A model generated the notes under the pieces. That model had not been told where the DNA came from and did no database searches. It saw nothing but the letters and a program-made list of their open reading frames with translations. A program made the position numbers and the translations under genes. From Escherichia coli (lineage in GTDB: Bacteria; Pseudomonadota; Gammaproteobacteria; Enterobacterales; Enterobacteriaceae): DNA of 43,440 nt. Numbering within the stretch: the first letter of the stretch is position 1; each line of letters begins with the position of its first letter. Shown in pieces: positions 1 through 40,509 of this stretch. The DNA lies in assembly GCF_003334255.1 (NCBI RefSeq), contig NZ_QOWU01000048.1; one strand, 5' to 3'.

Positions 1-50
1 AGCTGATAGAAACAGAAGCCACTGGAGCACCTCAAAAACACCATCATACA

Positions 51-1361
51 CTAAATCAGTAAGTTGGCAGCATCACCTCCCTGTTTAAAATCATAATTTG
101 GTTGTTCTGTTCTTGAGTTATTAAGTAGAGTTCTTATCAGTGTTTGCCAAGCATGATTGATAAATTTATTTTCTGATTCTTTAAAATATCGTCTGATTAA
201 AGCACATAAATCTTCGACACTTTTCTGACGAGCGCTAGCTGCCCAACGGCCCCCTTCGGTTTGCACCATTGAACGTTGTACACTGTCTCCTAACTGAGCG
301 ATAAATTTCTGTTCATCGTCAAGTTGCATGTTTTCATTTATGATTAATTCATACAAAGCAAGAAAAACAGCTTGATAGTAACGAGGACATTCTTGAGATG
401 AAGATGCATTGCCCAGAATGTGTGATCTAAAGTTCAAATTATTTGCATCAAATAATTTTTGAATCATCTCATAAACGAAGAGGTAATTATTGACAATTTT
501 ATCTGCACCATTTGTCTGAATGTAATTCTCTAATTGAGTTCGTGTATGGATTGCATGACTCGTCGAACCTTCACCGTAAAATGTATCGAGCGATGTTGAT
601 CCTGATGTTGGCTTATCATCTAAAAATATATAGCCCAAGATATTTGCAACTAACTCTTCATCGTCAGAGTCTCTAATGCTAGGCCTACTAATGATATGAT
701 TTCTAATATAGAAATGATTGTCTATATTTATTCCATAATCGAGTCCATCATTGCAAATTGATATGTTATGTATTTTATTCAGTCCCATTATATCGCTATG
801 TGTAGTATCTCCTCTTATAATTGTCGATATTTTCCTTACTAACTCTGAAAAATTACTAACGCACCCCGCACTTCGTAGTTCTTGTTTTGATAAAATTTTA
901 CCATTGGAATTTATGCGTCGAAACACTTCGTCAATGTGGTCCTCTGTTGAAGAGTATTCAGATATAGCAAATCTATAGCGAGCAATTAATGTAGAACTTT
1001 CGCGGGATAGCACTGGCTCTTTTTGTTGAAGTTTACCACTGTCTTTTAGTTGTTTTGTTAATGCAATGGCATCTAAATTAAAGTATTTACCATTTAATGA
1101 AAATCGCTGCTCAATAAAACTCATTAAAGCTTCTAGTCTTTGCATTCCATCAAGGATTTCTCTTTTGTTGTCAATGGAAACAAACAATAGCAAAGGGATA
1201 GGGTATTGCTGAGTCATTGATGAAATCAGTGCTGTTTTCTCTTCGAGGGACCATACTAATTTTCTTTGGTATCTTCGATTTATAATTAATTTATCATCCA
1301 GATACCACTCGTATAATTCTTCTGCTGTCTTGGAGTCAATATCTAAGTTTTCATTAGCCAT
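51..1361 (-). CDS. DUF262 (ParB/Srx-like NTPase fold, GmrSD N-terminal-type) domain protein, 436 aa
   Basis: N-terminal 'RRYQRKLVW' and 'DGMQRLEAL' match the DUF262 signature (DGQQR-type motif). ATG start at 1361. Sits in an AT-rich block (1-1645) that contrasts with the GC-rich pem/rep backbone. No recognisable C-terminal HNH/DUF1524 motif seen. Confidence 0.6.
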   Translation of the reverse strand: MANENLDIDSKTAEELYEWYLDDKLIINRRYQRKLVWSLEEKTALISSMTQQYPIPLLLFVSIDNKREILDGMQRLEALMSFIEQRFSLNGKYFNLDAIALTKQLKDSGKLQQKEPVLSRESSTLIARYRFAISEYSSTEDHIDEVFRRINSNGKILSKQELRSAGCVSNFSELVRKISTIIRGDTTHSDIMGLNKIHNISICNDGLDYGINIDNHFYIRNHIISRPSIRDSDDEELVANILGYIFLDDKPTSGSTSLDTFYGEGSTSHAIHTRTQLENYIQTNGADKIVNNYLFVYEMIQKLFDANNLNFRSHILGNASSSQECPRYYQAVFLALYELIINENMQLDDEQKFIAQLGDSVQRSMVQTEGGRWAASARQKSVEDLCALIRRYFKESENKFINHAWQTLIRTLLNNSRTEQPNYDFKQGGDAANLLI

Positions 1362-1645
1362 TAGATGTATCTCGAGTATTTAGTTAAGAAACTGATAGGT
1401 CAGTATTTGCATCAATGTTCATTGAATTTGTATCCGAAGTCAATCTGATGTAGGAACTTCAAAACTGCGCAAAACACGCAAATACGCACAAGAAAGTAGG
1501 GCTGCGCTTGGAATTCGGAAAATAAACCACATCAAAACTACTTTTTAGCCAAATAACGTTTGGGAATCACCAGAATGGTGGGACAACAGCGGTTTTAGTG
1601 CCCTAAATCGTACGTTTTCATCCAGTTGCCCCTCAAACCCCATGT

Positions 1646-1978
1646 TCAAGTCAGAATAGTGGACAGGCGGCCAAGAACTTCGTTCATGATAGTCTCCGGA
1701 ACCCGTTCGAGTCGTTTTCCGCCCCGTGCTTTCATATCAATTGTCCGGGGTTGATCGCAACGTACAACACCTGTGGTACGTATGCCAACACCATCCAACG
1801 ACACCGCAAAGCCGGCAGTGCGGGCAAAATTGCCTCCGCTGGTTACGGGCACAACAACAGGCAGGCGGGTCACGCGATTAAAGGCCGCCGGTGTGACAAT
1901 CAGCACCGGCCGCGTTCCCTGCTGCTCATGACCTGCGGTAGGATCAAGCGAGACAAGCCAGATTTCCCCTCTTTCCAT
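1646..1978 (-). CDS. pemK: PemK/Kid toxin (endoribonuclease), 110 aa
   Basis: Translation from the internal ATG (MERGEIWLVSLDPTAGHEQQGTRPVLIVTPAAFN...) is essentially identical to R100/R1 PemK/Kid as I remember it. The ORF-track start at 2110 is a TTG over-extension. Confidence 0.9.
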   Translation of the reverse strand: MERGEIWLVSLDPTAGHEQQGTRPVLIVTPAAFNRVTRLPVVVPVTSGGNFARTAGFAVSLDGVGIRTTGVVRCDQPRTIDMKARGGKRLERVPETIMNEVLGRLSTILT

Positions 1979-1979
1979 G

Positions 1980-2237
1980 TCAGATTTCCTCCTGACCAGT
2001 CGCCGGTGCATCCAGCCATTCTCGTTCTTCAGCTGATATTTCAGCATTCGGATCACACTGTGCCAGTAGCTCAGCCAGTGAATATTGCGGGCGTCTGTAC
2101 GGCTCAACAATCAGCCGGCCATTATCAATGACCATGCCAACTTCATTATCTGTGCCCAGAGACAGCGCATTCAGCAGTGCCGGTGGGACGGTCAGCATAA
2201 CTGAGCCGCCAACCCTCTTCAGTCGGGTGGTATGCAT
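1980..2237 (-). CDS. pemI: PemI/Kis antitoxin, 85 aa
   Basis: MHTTRLKRVGGSVMLTVPPALLNAL... matches PemI/Kis. Lies immediately upstream of pemK with the typical 1-2 nt stop/start junction. Confidence 0.9.
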   Translation of the reverse strand: MHTTRLKRVGGSVMLTVPPALLNALSLGTDNEVGMVIDNGRLIVEPYRRPQYSLAELLAQCDPNAEISAEEREWLDAPATGQEEI

Positions 2238-4846: not shown

Positions 4847-4869
4847 ATAACTATACTCCCCGCATAGCT

Positions 4870-4956
4870 GAATTGTTGGCTATACGGTTTAAGTGGGCCC
4901 CGGTAATCTTTTCGTACTCGCCAAAGTTGAAGAAGATTATCGGGGTTTTTGCTTTT
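4870..4956 (+). ncRNA. copA: CopA antisense RNA (copy-number control), approximate bounds
   Basis: Lies on the strand opposite the repA leader, between copB and tap. Imperfect long hairpin (CCCCGGTAATCTT...AAGATTATCGGGG) followed by TTTTTGCTTTT at about 4898-4956, as expected for the CopA terminator stem-loop. 5' end not determined. Confidence 0.5.
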
Positions 4957-7015: not shown

Positions 7016-7472
7016 TATAAAATCACGACTTAATACGGAAAAAACTCTGTGCTACTCAGAACTGTCCGGTCATACTTCCCGACCGGATATTAAAAAAAGC
7101 AAATCTCATGCATTATTCAGCCTTCTGAATCCCTGGAGTAATGAAGGCTGCTTTTTCGTTACACCCTTCCCCGGCAGCGCCGGTGGCAGTGTTCAGCCCT
7201 TTTTCGGGCAAACTGCTGCCAGTCTGTCCGGGGAGCAGACTGCGCAGCCCGTAGCCATGCCTCAGCGGCTCCCGGCCAGTCCCCCCTGACTTCCAGCCGG
7301 ACAGCCCGGCGTCCGACCTGCCGGTAGCGCCATACCCCGGAGTTTTGCGAATCACGCCCTGTTCCGTTCATTTTCCTTCCCCCTTTAATCCAGGCCGGTG
7401 AATGTGTTATAAATTTTTATAACCTTCTTCTGCCGGGTATGGAAGAAGGTTTCAGAGAAGCCTTATTTTTCC

Positions 7473-9847: not shown

Positions 9848-12800
9848 TCAGTCTCCGCCCAGGGTTTTCTCTTTCTGCAGGTCACGAACCATATCCCGCT
9901 CCATCTGCTGCAGACGCTCCTGCAGCAGATTTTCCCGGGCAACCTCCCGGACCGCTTCCCGCTCCCGTTGTGATTCACGCAGCACACTCTCCGGCAGTGC
10001 GGTTTCCCGTTCAGATATGGCAGACCGGTCACGCTCCTGTCCGGCAATATCCCTGACAGCCAGCTCTGTTTTGCCGTCCGGCAGGTCAGGTTTGTTCTCT
10101 GCCATTTTCCTGACAATTTCATCTGCGCGGCGTTCCGTTTCACGGCGGATGGCCTCTTCAGCCTGCCGCTGTGCCAGTACCTCTGCCGTGACCGGTTCGC
10201 CATTTCCGGCACCCGGCTGGACGCTGTTGTCCGGGATATCCCCCCACACGCGGCCACCGGTGATGGCACCGGGATTCCACGGGCGACCTTCACCGGCGAT
10301 TCTTACCACCACACCACTGTCAGGATTATCACGGGCAATCCGGACGCCATCCTGCATATTATCAGCCAGCAGGCTCTCTCCGTTACGGCTGCCCTGCAGG
10401 GCCACGAACTGCGCATCCCCGCTGCCTTTCACCCGTCCTTCACCACTGAATCCCCGCAGCCCGTTTCCGTCATCCGTGGTCAGTGGGTTCAGCCAGATAC
10501 CAGCTGACTTGCCGTTACGGTCAAACGCCGGCAGTGCCACATGCGGCTGCGGATATTTACGTCCCGGTGCAATAAACCGTGCAGGGCTGTCTCCCCCGGC
10601 CAGCCCTGCCTGACGGAGAACGGCACGGCCTGCCGCCACGTCCCGCAGTTCCCGTGCCGTACTGAACAGCCGCTGCGCATTCATGACCTCCCGGTCCGGT
10701 TTCGGCTCCAGCACATCGTGGGCAGTTCCTTTCTGTACGGCATTGTTAATGGCATCCGTCCAGCCCTGACGGTTATCGGTGTACACCTGCACATGCTGCT
10801 TCATACGCGACAGGGCCACGTAGGCTGACTCAAAGCCGGCCATCAGTTTCCGGTTACCTTCCGTGCCTTCAAGCGCGATGGCAAAGGTTTCACTCGCCCC
10901 CTGCGCACCGTGGGCGGTGATGGCATAAGCCAGGTCAATATGTTGCTCTGCCCGCTCCTGGCCGGGGCGAATCACCCGGGTCTGCTGTCCGTCTGACAGC
11001 GTGACACTGTCACCGGAAACCGCTGTCACCGTCCAGACGCTGTTGGCCACATAACCGCGCTCCCGGTCACTCTTCGTGAAGCGCATCCGGTCGCCGGTCC
11101 CCACCCGGATTTTGTCCGGGGTGTACAGTGTGACACCTTCAGCCACCGCCTCCCGGGGCGAAATCAGCCGCGTGTTACCTTCCGCATCCTCCAGGGTTAT
11201 CAGCCCGTCATCCTTGCTGATACCGGCAATCCGGTGATACACACTATCCACCAGGGCAAGGGCATCCGGGTTATTCTCCCAGGTGGAGAGACGACGCAGC
11301 TCCCCGTCACGTATATTCGCTGTGTTCAGGACAGGCACCATGACCTGCTCTTTCCCCAGCTCACCGGCCTTTTCCCGTGCATCATGAATCATGCTGTTCA
11401 GTACGCGCCGGTCCTCATTCAGGTGCGTGACAATCAGCGTCTGCTCCCGTGCTTCCGGTGTCCTGCCGGTATAGTCGCGGACAATGGCTTCATACAGTGT
11501 CATGGGGACATCCGGAAAAGTCTCACCTTTCAGCATCGCCTTCTGCTGCGCTTCTGCCAGTTTCGCTTCCTGGCTGTGACTGAACTCCGTCACGGAGTGC
11601 TCCGGTGCCCATGCGCCCTCCTGACGGGGAACCTGAGACGGTTTCACACTCTCAAGCCCGGACAGTGCCCTTTCCACATCCCGGTTAATCAGGCTGTATA
11701 CCGCCTCCCGCAGTTCCGGCGTCTGACGCACAATCTCCTTCATGATGACCACATCGGCAGCACTGCGCGTCTGCTGGAGACGGAAAGGCTGACCGGGCGC
11801 GATGGCCTGCAGCTGGTCCGTGTCACCACTGGCCACGGCACGACCGCCACCGGCCGCAATCAGGGCGTATGCCCGTGCCATGTCGGTATTGCCCACCATT
11901 GAGCTCTCATCGAGCAGGAACAGCGTGTTGCTGAAATCCGGCGTTTCTCCGCTGCGCTGCTGCAGCTGCGTGTCATGCAGAAAGGACGCCAGCGTCTGTG
12001 CATCCACGCCGGCGCTGCGCATCTCACCGACCGCACGGTGCGTGGGCCCCAGCCCCACAACTCGGGGACGCTCACTCGCCGGCAGCATGTTCACGGCTGA
12101 CATCACCGCCCGGAACTGTGTGGTCTTACCCACCCCGGCATACCCCTGCACCACCGTGAAACGGTCGGACGTTTCCAGTATCATGCGGGTGGCGGCACGC
12201 TGTCCTGATGTCAGTTTCTCCATGAGTTCGCCAGGTACTCTCTCCATCAGCGGCGTGACCGCCTCCTTACCTTCGAGAATATGGCGAAGAATACTTTTTT
12301 CTGCCTCATACGACGCACGGGAAACCAGCAGGCCTGTGCCATAGCCTTTTGCCACATCCACATACAGTAAGTCACCGCGTTTTATCTGCGCATTGATTTC
12401 CCCTCCCAGTTCAGTAAAACCGGTTCCTTCTGCAGCAAACGACTTCGCCTCTGTCAGCAGGTCCACCATGCTGAAGGCCAGGTTTTTACTTTCCAGCACA
12501 GGAAGGGCCAGATGAATGGCCTGCTGTGCCGGCGTGTGCAGCCCGGTTTTCTGCAGACTGATAGCGGTTTCCAGCGATGTCTCACCGGCCCGCGCCTTTA
12601 TCTGCTCAGAAACCACCGTAAAGGAGGGATGGCGGGCAAGTTTTTCCGCAGTACGGGTTTCATCCAGTGAGGAATACAGCCGGACATCACGACCGCTGCG
12701 GGCCAGACCGTTCAGGGTGGCGTTGTCCATTGCCATCTGTGTGACGGAGGCAAACACCGTCGCACTGTCACTGACGGAATGCCCGGGCGTTTCCACCCAG

Positions 12801-18841: not shown

Positions 18842-21663
18842 AATGGCCCCTTCAATCGTTCTTTCTTATCATCCACCATCTGTTTTAACGCATCTTCAGA
18901 CGGTGTTGGCATTAATTTCTGTCGTTTATTTTCTTCATTATATCTGTTGTTTTGTTGAATTTCTTCCTGTTTGTGATTATTTTTTAACTCTGAATATTGT
19001 CTGTCTACAATATTTTCTTCGCCATGAATACTATTCTGAGTATCTCCGATATTCCCTTTATATTCTGTGACCATATTATCAACCTGATGTTTTACATCAT
19101 TACGGATATTACTGTCCTGCGTTCTTTGATCAATAATGGCCTGATGCCCCTGATGGTCAGCAATAATATCCTGGCTGCCACCACCCGAAGGTACGCTCTC
19201 CATTCCTTTACCAATATCCCCACGGGATTCACGCCAGGCATTATCAACACCAGGCTGCACCTGTTCCTGAACAAAAGACCATGCCATCGCCCGACGGCGT
19301 TCTGCAATCTCCGGTGAACTGGTGTTTGTCAGAATAGCTTCGGCATCCTGCGGTGCGTGTTTCATCACATACTGTGCAAACTGTTGCGACAAATCTTCGC
19401 TCATCTGCCCACTCATGCTTTCAGTACGGGATGCCATTTCAGCATATTCATGGCTGCGGGTCATATTCGTCGTGTACTGGTCGTAACTCTGTTTCGCTGA
19501 GTTCAGGGCTGCAGACAACTGGTCCACGCGGGAATCGGCATTATTGTCAGTATGGCTGCCGGATTCACTGACTTTGCGACTGGTAAAGTAATCGCTGGCC
19601 TCTTTAAAGTCCTTACTGGCTTTAGCATCGATATCATGGCGAGCATCATGGGTAGCCCTGCTGCCACTACTTGCTGAATGTGAGTCATCATCCGTTGCAT
19701 CCAGGCTCCCCTTAAATCCACCTCTGATGCCTACCCCACCACCAACACCAAGAATTTTAGGTTTAACCCCCCATTCAGCATGAGCATCAGCATACATTCC
19801 ACCAGATAGCCTGGTACTTGTTGATGCCAGTTCCTGAGTCGCCTGCTCATTACTGATATTATGCGCCTTCGCATAGCTTTCCACTGCACTGCGCATACGG
19901 CTGGCCATCATGGAGTCCTGAGCACTCATCGTGCTGTCAGCACCACCGGTGACAGAATCACTGCTCCCCCGGTTAGAACCAAACTGACTGAGCGTGTTCC
20001 AGGCACTGGCAATACTGCTGCTGAACCCATGCAGGGCACTTTCTGCTCTGTTCGATGCTTCCCGGGCCATTTCCTGTTGTGCCGCCGCAATCTGACGCGT
20101 TGCATTGATACCGACCGGTAAACGGGACATCGCCCCGCTCGCATCCATCACCATATTACCGTCACGGGTCTGTGTGGCGGTTGCGCCACTGCCGGTCTGG
20201 TACATCATCTGACCAAACGACGTGGTGCTGTTGGTGCTCCAGCTGAAGCCGTTAACGTTCTCCGTCTGCATGTTGCCGTAGGAGTAATTACCGTCAACCA
20301 CACTGCCTGCTGCACTGGCGGTCGGGCTGATAGCAGAGGAAGCGAAATGGCTGTACACACTGGAAAATCCTGCCCCGAGCCCCCTGACCATCATCCAGGA
20401 TAATGGCGGGATCATCATGGAAAGATACCCGGCAGTGGAAGCCAGATCGGAGTATTTCAGCTGTATCTGTGAAATTTCCGAGAGCACCACCGGTGCACCA
20501 TTCTGCTTTGCATAAAATGTCATGGCGCTGTTCAGAATGGCGTACAACATTGGCCATGACTGCAACCACATCAGGGCAAACACATAGCCTTTCAGGACGG
20601 ACAGCGTCAGTTTGTTGAAGACAGCCGCCAGTACCAGGAGCGGGAAAATACCGATGGCGATCCCCGTCAGGATGGTCTGCGTCATGGGCAGTGTCCGCAT
20701 CGCCACATGACCGATGGAGACATGTGCCAGACGTTGCTTCTCCATCGATGATGTGGTGGCCAGATTCACCAGGCTGGCCGAATCACCATTACGTGCGGCA
20801 TAACTGGTGATCCCCTCCTTCAGCGCATTGATGGTGACATTCTGGCGGATGATCTGGCTGGCTGATTTACTTGAGCCATAGAAGTAACTGTAACTGTCGC
20901 CAATCAGCGTACTGAACAACAGGTTCGGATCAGGGCGTCCACCAAATAGCTGCTGGGCATAATAATGCCATGTTTTTCCGCCACTCTGTGTGTCCAGATT
21001 CAGCTTGTCTTTCAGCGAAACCGACGCGTCCTTACAGGTCACGAAATTATTATTGCTGTCATAAACGCCCCGCAGCGGACTGGGGCGGGAAAAAATCAGC
21101 GTGTAAGGATCAGCGGAGGCCATCAGTTCCTCCAGCGTGTATTTGTGGTTCAGGTAAATATCCCCCATCACGCAGTTCTGCACATAATCCTGGAAAAGAT
21201 TGGCGATTTCCGGATTACGGGACAAAAAGTCGGTGCTTTTTGATACCAGTTCTGCGCCAAACAGCATCCCCGTTTTGCTGTAGGTGACACTGTCCGGTTG
21301 CGTGAAGATCATCTCGTAACTGGCCACCATTGCATGCCCGATACGGGTCGTCAGTGAAAGTGGCATCGCCAGTCCGACCGGCACATTATCCACCCGGTGA
21401 ACTTTGACCAGGTCACTGTTATCAATAATCTGCACCGATGTGCGGACATTAACCAGCAGGCTGATAAGCACAAACACGGCCACCCAGCCCAGCAAATCCA
21501 TCACGTTGTGCCGCTGTACCCACATTACGGCCACCGCGAGAACAGACAATGTGAGCGCAATTTTTTCAATGGAATCCCACGTCCGGGTCCCCATAAAAGC
21601 GGCAATGGCATTCAGGTTATTCCGCAACCACTCACCACCGGCAATCACATAAACTTCATTCAC
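18838..21663 (-). CDS. traG: TraG mating-pair stabilisation/pilus assembly/entry exclusion protein, 941 aa
   Basis: Size, N-terminal polytopic region and large periplasmic C-terminal domain match F TraG (938 aa). Syntenic with traH and traS. Confidence 0.9.
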   Translation of the reverse strand: MNEVYVIAGGEWLRNNLNAIAAFMGTRTWDSIEKIALTLSVLAVAVMWVQRHNVMDLLGWVAVFVLISLLVNVRTSVQIIDNSDLVKVHRVDNVPVGLAMPLSLTTRIGHAMVASYEMIFTQPDSVTYSKTGMLFGAELVSKSTDFLSRNPEIANLFQDYVQNCVMGDIYLNHKYTLEELMASADPYTLIFSRPSPLRGVYDSNNNFVTCKDASVSLKDKLNLDTQSGGKTWHYYAQQLFGGRPDPNLLFSTLIGDSYSYFYGSSKSASQIIRQNVTINALKEGITSYAARNGDSASLVNLATTSSMEKQRLAHVSIGHVAMRTLPMTQTILTGIAIGIFPLLVLAAVFNKLTLSVLKGYVFALMWLQSWPMLYAILNSAMTFYAKQNGAPVVLSEISQIQLKYSDLASTAGYLSMMIPPLSWMMVRGLGAGFSSVYSHFASSAISPTASAAGSVVDGNYSYGNMQTENVNGFSWSTNSTTSFGQMMYQTGSGATATQTRDGNMVMDASGAMSRLPVGINATRQIAAAQQEMAREASNRAESALHGFSSSIASAWNTLSQFGSNRGSSDSVTGGADSTMSAQDSMMASRMRSAVESYAKAHNISNEQATQELASTSTRLSGGMYADAHAEWGVKPKILGVGGGVGIRGGFKGSLDATDDDSHSASSGSRATHDARHDIDAKASKDFKEASDYFTSRKVSESGSHTDNNADSRVDQLSAALNSAKQSYDQYTTNMTRSHEYAEMASRTESMSGQMSEDLSQQFAQYVMKHAPQDAEAILTNTSSPEIAERRRAMAWSFVQEQVQPGVDNAWRESRGDIGKGMESVPSGGGSQDIIADHQGHQAIIDQRTQDSNIRNDVKHQVDNMVTEYKGNIGDTQNSIHGEENIVDRQYSELKNNHKQEEIQQNNRYNEENKRQKLMPTPSEDALKQMVDDKKERLKGPL

Positions 21664-23036
21664 AGCGTGCTCCCTCCGAAGTGATAGTTGTTCTGGTAAC
21701 GACTGAGCATGCGGGCGGAAAGCTGCTGACGCATGTAGCTCATCTGACGATCGACAACCAGCAGCGCATCCTGCTGTACCTGCACCTGTGACTGAAACGC
21801 CGCAATCTGCCGGGTGGCATCATTCATGTTGTCGTTAATATGTTCGATAACTGCTTCGTCATAATTTCCTGTGGCCACCATCGCCCGGGCCTGCTGTATC
21901 AGCTCCTGAATGTACTGCAGCAGGATGTCGTAACCGATATAGTCCGTCAGCTGGTAAATCATACTGTTGGAAACACCGAGCATCTGCGGGTCAACCAGGT
22001 ATTTGAAGACGGGGATGGTGGTACTGGAAATAAAGCCTTTTTCCTTGTCATCCAGAGGCGTGTCACTGACAGCCTTGTTCTGAATGCTGGCCAGAAGTTT
22101 AGTAATCTGAGACTTCAGTGCATTATCCCGGCTGATGGTCACCGGTGTGTCTGCCACCACTTTCAGGCATTTATCAGAATCGTTGCAGTGATAAATTTTT
22201 GCTGTGCCGCCTTCCATCATGGCCCGGATAATTGAGCGGTCAGTGGTTCTGGCTGACAGCGGTGTGATTTCGCCGTTGGGACCAAACACCAGTGAGCCGG
22301 TCAGCGTCATCACAAACTCTTTCAGCTCTTTGTTGCCGTCAAACATTCTGTTTTTGGAAAGCGCATTCCACATGATGTTAATGTTTTTGGTCACCCGCTC
22401 CTTATCCTTGTCGCTGGCTTTATCCCTGACGCTGTCAGATTTACCGCCAACGGTACATCCCTGCCGGGAAGCCGCCCAGTCAGCAAAAATATTGCTCTCA
22501 CCGGCAATGTCCTGACAGACTTTTTGCTGGGACACCTGCGTCCGGGGGAAAAGCCCGCCGATAATCCCCTGCGCCGCCTGGCAGGAACTGAGGTTCATGC
22601 TGTTAATGTCGCTTGCCATTTTCTGCAGGAAGTCTTTTGCGGTTTTGATTTCCGGCACCGTTGTCTGCAGGGCAAGGTCAAAAAAGTAACCGGCAGCATT
22701 ACTCATAATCTGCTTAACAAAACGCTGCAGCTGCTCGCCATTAATAAAACTGAACGAACCGAGATAAGCGTCGATGCCGCCACATCCGGCATTGATATCC
22801 GGCAGCGTCATGGAAATCAGCTGAACATTTTTGACCTGAGTACGGGCATACAGGGAGCCGCCGTAAGCATAGCCGGCAGCCTGCCCCTGCCAGACGCCCG
22901 GCTGTGTGGTATTGGAGGCGAAGCCCAGCTTGTTAAAGAACTGATTCATGTCGCTGTTCACATCCGCTGACGCTGCGGGTGTGACCGTCAGTAAAGCAGC
23001 ACAAAGAACCAGAAGAGGTTTAATGCGTAGCATCAT
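21660..23036 (-). CDS. traH: TraH pilus assembly protein, 458 aa
   Basis: Signal peptide (MMLRIKPLLVLCAALLTVTPAASA), size and C-terminal coiled-coil match F TraH. Confidence 0.9.
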   Translation of the reverse strand: MMLRIKPLLVLCAALLTVTPAASADVNSDMNQFFNKLGFASNTTQPGVWQGQAAGYAYGGSLYARTQVKNVQLISMTLPDINAGCGGIDAYLGSFSFINGEQLQRFVKQIMSNAAGYFFDLALQTTVPEIKTAKDFLQKMASDINSMNLSSCQAAQGIIGGLFPRTQVSQQKVCQDIAGESNIFADWAASRQGCTVGGKSDSVRDKASDKDKERVTKNINIMWNALSKNRMFDGNKELKEFVMTLTGSLVFGPNGEITPLSARTTDRSIIRAMMEGGTAKIYHCNDSDKCLKVVADTPVTISRDNALKSQITKLLASIQNKAVSDTPLDDKEKGFISSTTIPVFKYLVDPQMLGVSNSMIYQLTDYIGYDILLQYIQELIQQARAMVATGNYDEAVIEHINDNMNDATRQIAAFQSQVQVQQDALLVVDRQMSYMRQQLSARMLSRYQNNYHFGGSTL

Positions 23037-39632: not shown

Positions 39633-40319
39633 TTACTTAACGCTATAAAATTCACGAATTATATTTAATAGCGAATCTATTTCCCCTTTATAGATACATG
39701 ACACTCTGAATAAATCAAAGTGTTCAAAAAATTCTTTTATTTTCCGTTTAACTGGTTTAATTCGATCCTCAGATGCTCTGTCTGTAATACCCAATTCTCT
39801 GGCAATTGTTGCATGACCAACACCCAGCATATAAAAAGAGAAAACAAGCAATGTCCCGGGGGAAAGATCATTCCATATCGTTAATTTGTCAGAAGTATTT
39901 GTATTACTTCCACTCTGATTTAACGCAAAAAATGGATAATCAGGAAACGGATTAATTTGCCATAAAACAACAGATTCGTCATTATAAAAAGAAACATTCT
40001 CCATCCTTATCTGATAGATTTCGCCATGAAAATTAAAACGACGACAAAATGCAGAGCCATGTCCAAGAGCCTGGCATTCCAGTTCAAGTGATGAAAGAAA
40101 AATTTCAACCTGCAGACGTATATAACTCTCTCCGGATAAGGGTTTATCTTCTCTGGAAAAGAGTTCAATAAAAGCCCCATTGGCATAAAGGATTTTCCGG
40201 TTTTTGTTACGGACACAAACCGGAACGGGAGAATTTCTGTAGATATTCTGAACGTTAAGGATGTATTTATTTACAGATTGACTGTTAAGTGGCCTTTCTC
40301 TACGATCCAGCGCACACAT
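39633..40319 (-). CDS. traJ: TraJ transcriptional activator of the tra operon, about 228 aa
   Basis: Start trimmed to the ATG at 40319 ([14 protein letters not shown]...), which has a GGAGG RBS at 5-nt spacing. C-terminal helix-turn-helix-like segment '[20 protein letters not shown]'. ORF-track start at 40379 runs into the finP/leader region. Confidence 0.8.
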
Positions 40320-40395
40320 AGGAACCTCCGTTAAGGATTCTATGGACAGTCGATGCAGGGAGGTCTGAACTCCCTGCATCGGCGATTTTCAGTTT
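40320..40395 (+). ncRNA. finP: FinP antisense RNA (approximate), complementary to the traJ leader
   Basis: Plus-strand perfect hairpin CGATGCAGGGAG-gtctgaa-CTCCCTGCATCG at about 40350-40381, followed by GCGATTTTC. Overlies the traJ RBS region on the opposite strand. Ends not mapped. Confidence 0.45.
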
Positions 40396-40509
40396 CAATT
40401 TTTAACGTGGCATTAACCACGTAATTAATATACTAATTATCTGACGTATTGTCATCTTTTTGAATCATAAAAATTCTTATATTTGAACCAACTCAAACTT
40501 CATTTTCAT

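Follow-up and report, generated by a model that had tools for sequence, protein, structure and literature searches.

The gene at the left edge of a 43,440-nucleotide (nt) stretch of Escherichia coli DNA (assembly GCF_003334255.1, contig NZ_QOWU01000048.1; hereafter, the window) encodes a 436-residue protein with an N-terminal DUF262 domain. An initial annotation, made from the letters alone, took it for a candidate defence gene of this length. We find that the open reading frame (ORF) is real but not a complete gene: only codons 1–428 are native, and the rest is contributed by the insertion sequence IS1. The feature is very probably the IS1-truncated 5′ remnant of a single-gene DUF262-Schlafen anti-phage protein encoded in the backbone of IncFII (R100/R1-type) plasmids. 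The relevant features, in window coordinates, are:

1..77, minus strand: left end of IS1, namely of the IS1b copy at the edge of the R100 resistance determinant; the window begins inside the element
51..1361, minus strand: ORF of 436 amino acids, chimeric (native codons plus IS1 tail)
51..77, minus strand: IS1-encoded ORF tail, codons 429–436 (GDAANLLI) and TAG stop, from sequence reading and alignment
78..86, minus strand: 9-bp target-site duplication AAACAGGGA, codons K426-Q427-G428, from comparison with R100 and the window sequence
78..1361, minus strand: native 5′ part, 1284 nt, codons 1–428 of 590, from identity to the intact gene
84..107, minus strand: Schlafen catalytic motif E419-x4-D424-x-K426 (TEQPNYDFK), from alignment and motif match
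867..1286, minus strand: DUF262/GmrSD_N, a ParB/Srx-fold domain of nucleoside triphosphatase (NTPase) type, residues 26–165

The IS1 junction at the end of the gene

The longest open frame in window positions 1–1645 spans 442 codons; in 500 shuffles the longest frame averaged 82 codons and never exceeded 189. At its 3′ end, the frame runs into IS1. The IS1 terminal inverted repeat, GGTGATGCTGCCAACTTACTGAT, is present as an exact 23/23 match at 55–77 of the minus strand, abutting the gene; this is its single occurrence in the window (chance expectation, 0), and it encodes the C terminus of the ORF product, GGDAANLLI, with the stop. Window positions 1–89 are 100% identical to the junction of IS1b with the gene in R100, where the annotated IS1B transposase abuts the ORF; no difference was seen between the left edge of the window and this R100 junction of IS1b with the resistance transfer factor. 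Because of the IS1 repeat and the identity to R100, codons 429–436 and the stop are assigned to IS1. In the protein alignment, the window ORF and its homologues agree as far as ...TEQPNYDFKQG, beyond which the ORF diverges and the homologues run on for about 162 residues.

Comparison with R100 also revealed how the gene was split. There, the 5′ part stops at gene nt 1284 and the 3′ part restarts at gene nt 1276, right after IS1a, with a second copy of AAACAGGGA from R100 nt 21993 onward. Hence these 9 bp flank the whole IS1-bounded resistance determinant (r-determinant), and their presence on both sides shows that the IS1-flanked determinant transposed into the gene. Neither the second copy of AAACAGGGA nor the detached 3′ gene fragment is contained in this window. 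The IS1-flanked composite transposon of the R100/NR1 r-determinant is known as Tn2670. Since R100 and hundreds of complete plasmids have the same IS1 junction, an assembly artefact is unlikely.

The downstream end of the gene therefore lies inside the window and is the transposon junction. The initial annotation had placed this side beyond the window edge, together with a possibly missing operon partner, and had proposed to look leftward for co-oriented genes. In pH1038-142, the nearest relative of the window, the DNA to the left is occupied by IS1B and then by merR and resistance genes; the order IS1, then merR/Tn21 resistance genes, is likewise what the nearest relatives have on the off-window side. 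We conclude that the resistance region, and no defence partner, lies there.

Two other records, NZ_CP176408.1 (6783–9332) and NZ_JBWDPQ010000001.1, have a lone IS1 at exactly this site, the span of 2550 nt being the sum of 1773 nt, IS1 and 9 nt. The lone IS1 is either what was left when the r-determinant was lost through IS1-IS1 recombination or a state that preceded its assembly.

The intact gene and the architecture of its product

On one E. coli plasmid we found the reciprocal form of the gene, with an intact 3′ end and a 5′ part broken by ISKpn26. When this form is joined with the 5′ part from the window, a gene of 1773 nt and 590 codons results. Indeed, such a gene exists uninterrupted, at 100% identity, on many plasmids, E. 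coli M15 plasmid B (NZ_CP010215.1, 47752–49524) being one of them. Its product is WP_001262766.1, and that of the truncated form is WP_001262765.1; nt 1–1284 of the window gene are 100% identical to the intact gene.

The DUF262 signature recognized initially held up in a profile search, Pfam assigning GmrSD_N/DUF262 (PF03235) to residues 26–165 of the window ORF (E = 1.1e-19). The motifs NRRYQRKLVW (residues 28–37) and ILDGMQRLEAL (residues 69–79), the latter including DGMQR (residues 71–75), a variant of the DGQQR motif, both fall in invariant columns of a family alignment of 47 sequences. An NCBIfam scan of the ORF matched 0 families. For the intact 590-residue protein, Pfam returned GmrSD_N at 26–165 (E = 2e-19) and SLFN_AlbA_2 at 420–573 (E = 3.6e-5). 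An AlphaFold2 model of this protein, built with 47 homologues, had a mean predicted local distance difference test (pLDDT) value of 86.5. Its N-terminal domain matched the folds of BrxU (8.8), SspE (7.6), DndI, ParB-like proteins, and sulfiredoxins; its C-terminal domain (residues ~419–590) has the fold of an AlbA_2/Schlafen nuclease by fold comparison; and the residues between them (~166–415) form a helical region. When the PDB was searched with a family profile, a weak match to BrxU (E = 0.0014) and a spurious one to a photoreceptor were obtained. In the AlphaFold database, the ~590–600-residue architecture recurs across many phyla, with several E. coli fragments that include the 436-residue form.

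The catalytic motif of prokaryotic Schlafens is Ex4(E/D)xK (Perez Taboada et al., Nat Microbiol 2026, PMC13056530). The string E419-QPNY-D424-F-K426 fits it and is retained in the window ORF; in the 47-sequence alignment E419, Q420, F425, and K426 are invariant and D424 is nearly so. IS1 entered two codons past this motif. The remnant retains the first strand of the nuclease only, and the window protein has no Schlafen/AlbA_2 domain. The C-terminal ~250 residues, proposed in the initial annotation to be a different effector, correspond to the helical region, and the effector proper was cut off by IS1.

Could the ORF be a complete, functional defence protein of the GmrSD type (modification-dependent restriction) whose C-terminal effector is unusual and whose operon partner lies just beyond the window edge? 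It does contain DUF262, and through this domain it matches the PADLOC models NsnA, PD-T4-2_A, REase_II (a type II restriction endonuclease model), and HEC-05, none of them over the full length. However, its end is IS1 sequence; DUF1524/HNH, not seen in the initial annotation either, was detected by Pfam neither in the truncated nor in the intact protein; IS1 and mer/Tn21 genes lie off the window; and intact homologues are single genes without a conserved neighbour. The IS1 junction and the target-site duplication already refute a complete gene, and we give this explanation virtually no chance. Membership in the systems matched by PADLOC was rejected as well, since their partner genes are absent.

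Relatives and the proposed activity of the intact protein

Intact homologues are ~590 residues long. Homologues in Serratia (81–82% identical) are lone genes lying in P2-like prophages between portal gene Q and replication gene A; those of Enterobacter, Cronobacter, and E. coli (71% identical) stand alone between tail genes V and S. The Q/A and V/S positions are the two recognized anti-phage cargo hotspots of P2-like phages. The association with defence hotspots is thus through homologues that are 71–82% identical, and the plasmid copy itself adjoins pemIK only. The pemIK genes are constant upstream neighbours, present at every intact locus, whereas the element downstream of intact plasmid copies varies by lineage (Tn21 mer, Tn3-family, IS21, IS66, or a small ORF). 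A hairpin and a T-run are found directly 3′ of the stop of the intact plasmid gene. No conserved partner gene was found at the intact plasmid or prophage loci examined. From the lone homologues and the varying downstream neighbours we conclude that the gene works alone.

A tblastn search of isolated phage genomes (INPHARED) yielded no full-length homologue, only short DUF262 matches. Among them, T4-like coliphages (Phi1, Krischvirus, FL38, MIZ2/3/6, and others) have a short hypothetical ORF (e.g., NC_009821.1, 116664–116906) with 38–39% identity to DUF262 residues 16–91. This DUF262 fragment might be a decoy or an inhibitor.

Schlafen nucleases of prokaryotes act as effectors against phages and are found in fusion with varied sensor domains; DUF262-Slfn proteins account for 1.8% of them (PMC13056530). 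One such protein, EcoSlfn7 from E. coli UC4224, gives broad protection against phages and lowers the efficiency of plating of T7 ~540-fold (PMC13056530). EcoSlfn7 resembles the intact ancestor of the window gene in having an N-terminal DUF262 domain and a Schlafen/AlbA_2 nuclease with Ex4(E/D)xK, in coming from the same host species, and in being encoded by a single gene with homologues in defence hotspots. It differs from the window copy, which lacks the nuclease domain and lies beside pemIK in an IncFII backbone. Strain UC4224 (assembly GCA_025369975.1) carries a 111,840-bp IncF plasmid; the strain is not among the E. coli matches listed for the plasmid allele or for the P2-type allele. The link to phage defence suggested in the initial annotation is borne out to this extent, by homologues in P2 hotspots and by the known defence activity of a DUF262-Slfn protein (PMC13056530).

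By analogy, the DUF262 module of the intact protein may sense an infection cue, either a nucleic acid or a nucleotide. In the most likely mechanism, it would gate the Schlafen nuclease as sensor/NTPase, and cleavage of tRNA would then block phage protein synthesis; RorSlfn5, an Ig (immunoglobulin)-like-domain Schlafen of a different class, cleaves tRNA anticodon arms once triggered (PMC13056530). Several points speak against our interpretation of the gene. The defence role of the intact protein is suggested by its relatives; among these, up to two DUF262-Slfn constructs were tested, with activity reported for one, and tRNA cleavage is known from the Ig-like-domain class of RorSlfn5, not from the DUF262 class (PMC13056530). 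EcoSlfn7 and WP_001262766.1 were likened by described architecture, not by sequence identity. The Pfam match to AlbA_2 is modest (E = 3.6e-5), and a single-sequence PDB search with the C-terminal domain gave nothing significant, only chance matches to dUTPase. Finally, the truncated ORF has kept an open frame and matches the intact allele at 100% identity, and its product may have residual DUF262 activity.

We also compared the protein with other DUF262 systems and with eukaryotic Schlafens. In GmrSD, BrxU, and SspE, DUF262 acts as NTPase/sensor and controls the nuclease attached to it; in Menshen and PD-T4-2 it is paired with other effectors (PMC10952713). The GmrSD/BrxU type IV enzymes and SspE have a C-terminal DUF1524 His-Me/HNH DNA nuclease where the protein described here has Schlafen/AlbA_2. 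An enzyme of the GmrSD/BrxU/SspE type, which the initial annotation had in mind, was rejected, as DUF1524 is absent even from the intact form; with Schlafen/AlbA_2 in place of DUF1524, a modification-dependent DNA restriction mechanism is not implied. The profile match to NsnA of Menshen (E = 4e-22, residues 10–341) covers DUF262 and part of the helical region only, and that to PD-T4-2_A (E = 7e-19) covers residues ~14–179. Menshen (NsnABC) was rejected because NsnB and NsnC (ATPase, OLD-type nuclease) are not adjacent at intact loci, and PD-T4-2 because no HEPN gene neighbours any intact locus examined. In contrast to both systems, there is no partner gene here, and the effector is fused and has another fold. 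The antiviral human tRNases SLFN11/12/5 and SAMD9 have an AlbA_2/Schlafen core too, but are only 10–17% identical and differ in having helicase or other modules fused and no DUF262.

Prevalence, fate of the remnant, and neighbouring features

In PLSDB, 117 of the 1468 matching records (~8%) contain at least 80% of the gene. Some piece of it was found in 803 of 5426 complete E. coli genomes, with a copy covering at least 80% in 105; in ~87% of the carriers the gene is disrupted, and nt 1–1284, as in the window, is the commonest allele. The remnant is common, and the single-gene defence protein from which it derives is of a known kind. All alleles are ~100% identical. Other copies bear extra insertion sequences or shorter truncations. 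The gene order of the IncFII backbone is repA, CAAX protease, pemI, pemK, the gene, a small ORF, and parMR. The gene is hence not defence cargo, as had been supposed: it belongs to the backbone, with pemIK on one side and parMR on the other, and the cargo is the r-determinant that disrupted it.

The AT-rich gene and its 3′ flank form an insertion hotspot, hit by independent events across loci. ISKpn26 is inserted at gene nt ~285, and IS1A, IS3, or ISKpn26 lie within other copies; Tn21, Tn3-family, IS21, or IS66 elements adjoin the stop of intact ones. In pH1038-142, ISVsa5 is inserted between pemK and the gene, an insertion absent from this window.

In RefSeq, neither half is flagged as a pseudogene; one is named "DUF262 domain-containing protein" and the other "RNA-binding domain-containing protein." On many E. 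coli plasmids the detached 3′ piece (nt 1276–1773) is also annotated as "AlbA family DNA-binding domain-containing protein" or "hypothetical protein." That the r-determinant had a Schlafen-type defence gene as its target thus seems to have gone unremarked in annotation. The main value of the present result is in correcting annotation and interpretation: the 436-residue form, which occurs in hundreds of clinical IncF plasmids, including those of sequence type 131 (ST131), is one half of a gene that has been split, and a census of defence systems would put plasmid-borne immunity too high by including it. WP_001262766.1 offers a natural plasmid-borne representative of the recently described DUF262-Schlafen class, and the natural truncation a built-in sensor-only control. 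If our interpretation is correct, a classic resistance determinant, that of R100, hit an anti-phage gene, and most carriers are now without a working copy, a modest, concrete case of resistance-gene acquisition eroding plasmid-encoded phage defence.

In sum, the IS1-flanked determinant entered at codons 426–428, duplicating 9 bp and detaching the nuclease domain, and the leftover ORF runs 8 codons into IS1 before a stop. The remnant probably persists only through its position between pemIK and the resistance region. Judging from the sequence, its product is most likely inactive in defence, because residues 429–590 are missing and the nuclease fold cannot form.

The frequency of the truncated allele raises the question of whether the nuclease-less protein, DUF262 plus helical region, keeps a selected function, as an NTPase or DNA-binding protein or as a dominant-negative partner that poisons intact DUF262-Schlafen oligomers from co-resident prophages or plasmids; its prevalence would in that case be more than hitch-hiking. 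The frame has stayed open, with an in-frame stop just 8 codons into IS1, the nt 1–1284 allele is the commonest in complete E. coli genomes, and related nucleases are oligomeric, BrxU being a dimer (PMC10952713) and RorSlfn5 a higher-order oligomer (PMC13056530). Yet linkage to pemIK, repA, and the resistance region accounts for the prevalence, and the many copies with further insertions or shorter truncations are what is expected of unconstrained DNA. The copies are ~100% identical, and hence selection on the remnant cannot be read from an allele this young; a promoter scan (see below) found no convincing site. We consider a selected function unlikely. A more specific proposal is that the 436-residue product, made from the backbone promoter, co-assembles with intact DUF262-Schlafen proteins of P2-like prophages or plasmids and silences them, or titrates their trigger, and that resistance acquisition repeatedly cost plasmids their Schlafen tRNase defence. 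This is speculative and, in our estimate, very unlikely; if true, the R100-type allele would be an accidental anti-defence or immunity-modulating factor.

The same figures bear on a housekeeping role of the intact gene, in ParB-like partition or DNA handling, for which the ParB/Srx fold and the proximity of parMR and pemIK could be cited. About 87% of E. coli carriers have the gene disrupted, yet the plasmids stay widespread. Close homologues reside at the defence hotspots of P2 prophages and not at loci for plasmid maintenance, and the C-terminal part is a Schlafen nuclease domain with a conserved catalytic motif. A DUF262-Slfn protein has, moreover, been shown experimentally to defend against phages (PMC13056530). 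We regard a housekeeping role as highly improbable and retain the interpretation of the intact gene as a DUF262-Schlafen anti-phage gene.

The following features lie upstream of the gene:

1362..1645, minus strand: intergenic region from the pemK stop to the gene start, 284 bp, from sequence reading
1646..2237, minus strand: toxin-antitoxin genes pemK (1646–1978) and pemI (1980–2237), from the R100 annotation mapped onto the window

As noted initially, a low-GC block borders the GC-rich pemK, which ends at 1646: the GC content is 0.343 in the gene, 0.551 in pemK-pemI, and 0.505 over the window as a whole. The 284-bp intergenic region presumably harbours the gene's own promoter. In a consensus promoter and terminator scan of positions 1–2400, sites were no more frequent than in shuffles, and no convincing promoter was seen upstream of the gene on its strand. 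The start of pemK varies in public records, from a 110-residue "PemK-mt" to a 133-residue form overlapping pemI, and the mechanical ORF list has a 154-residue frame with a TTG start at this position (window 1646–2110). Farther along the window, Rfam matches were obtained at 4864–4954, 7079–7262, 12193–12269, 20859–20944, and 40313–40422. The families matched are CopA, AS-pc02, AS-traI, AS-traG, and FinP with the traJ 5′ untranslated region, which are typical of IncFII/F-type plasmids; the matches confirm the window as the part of an R100-like plasmid that runs from replication to transfer.
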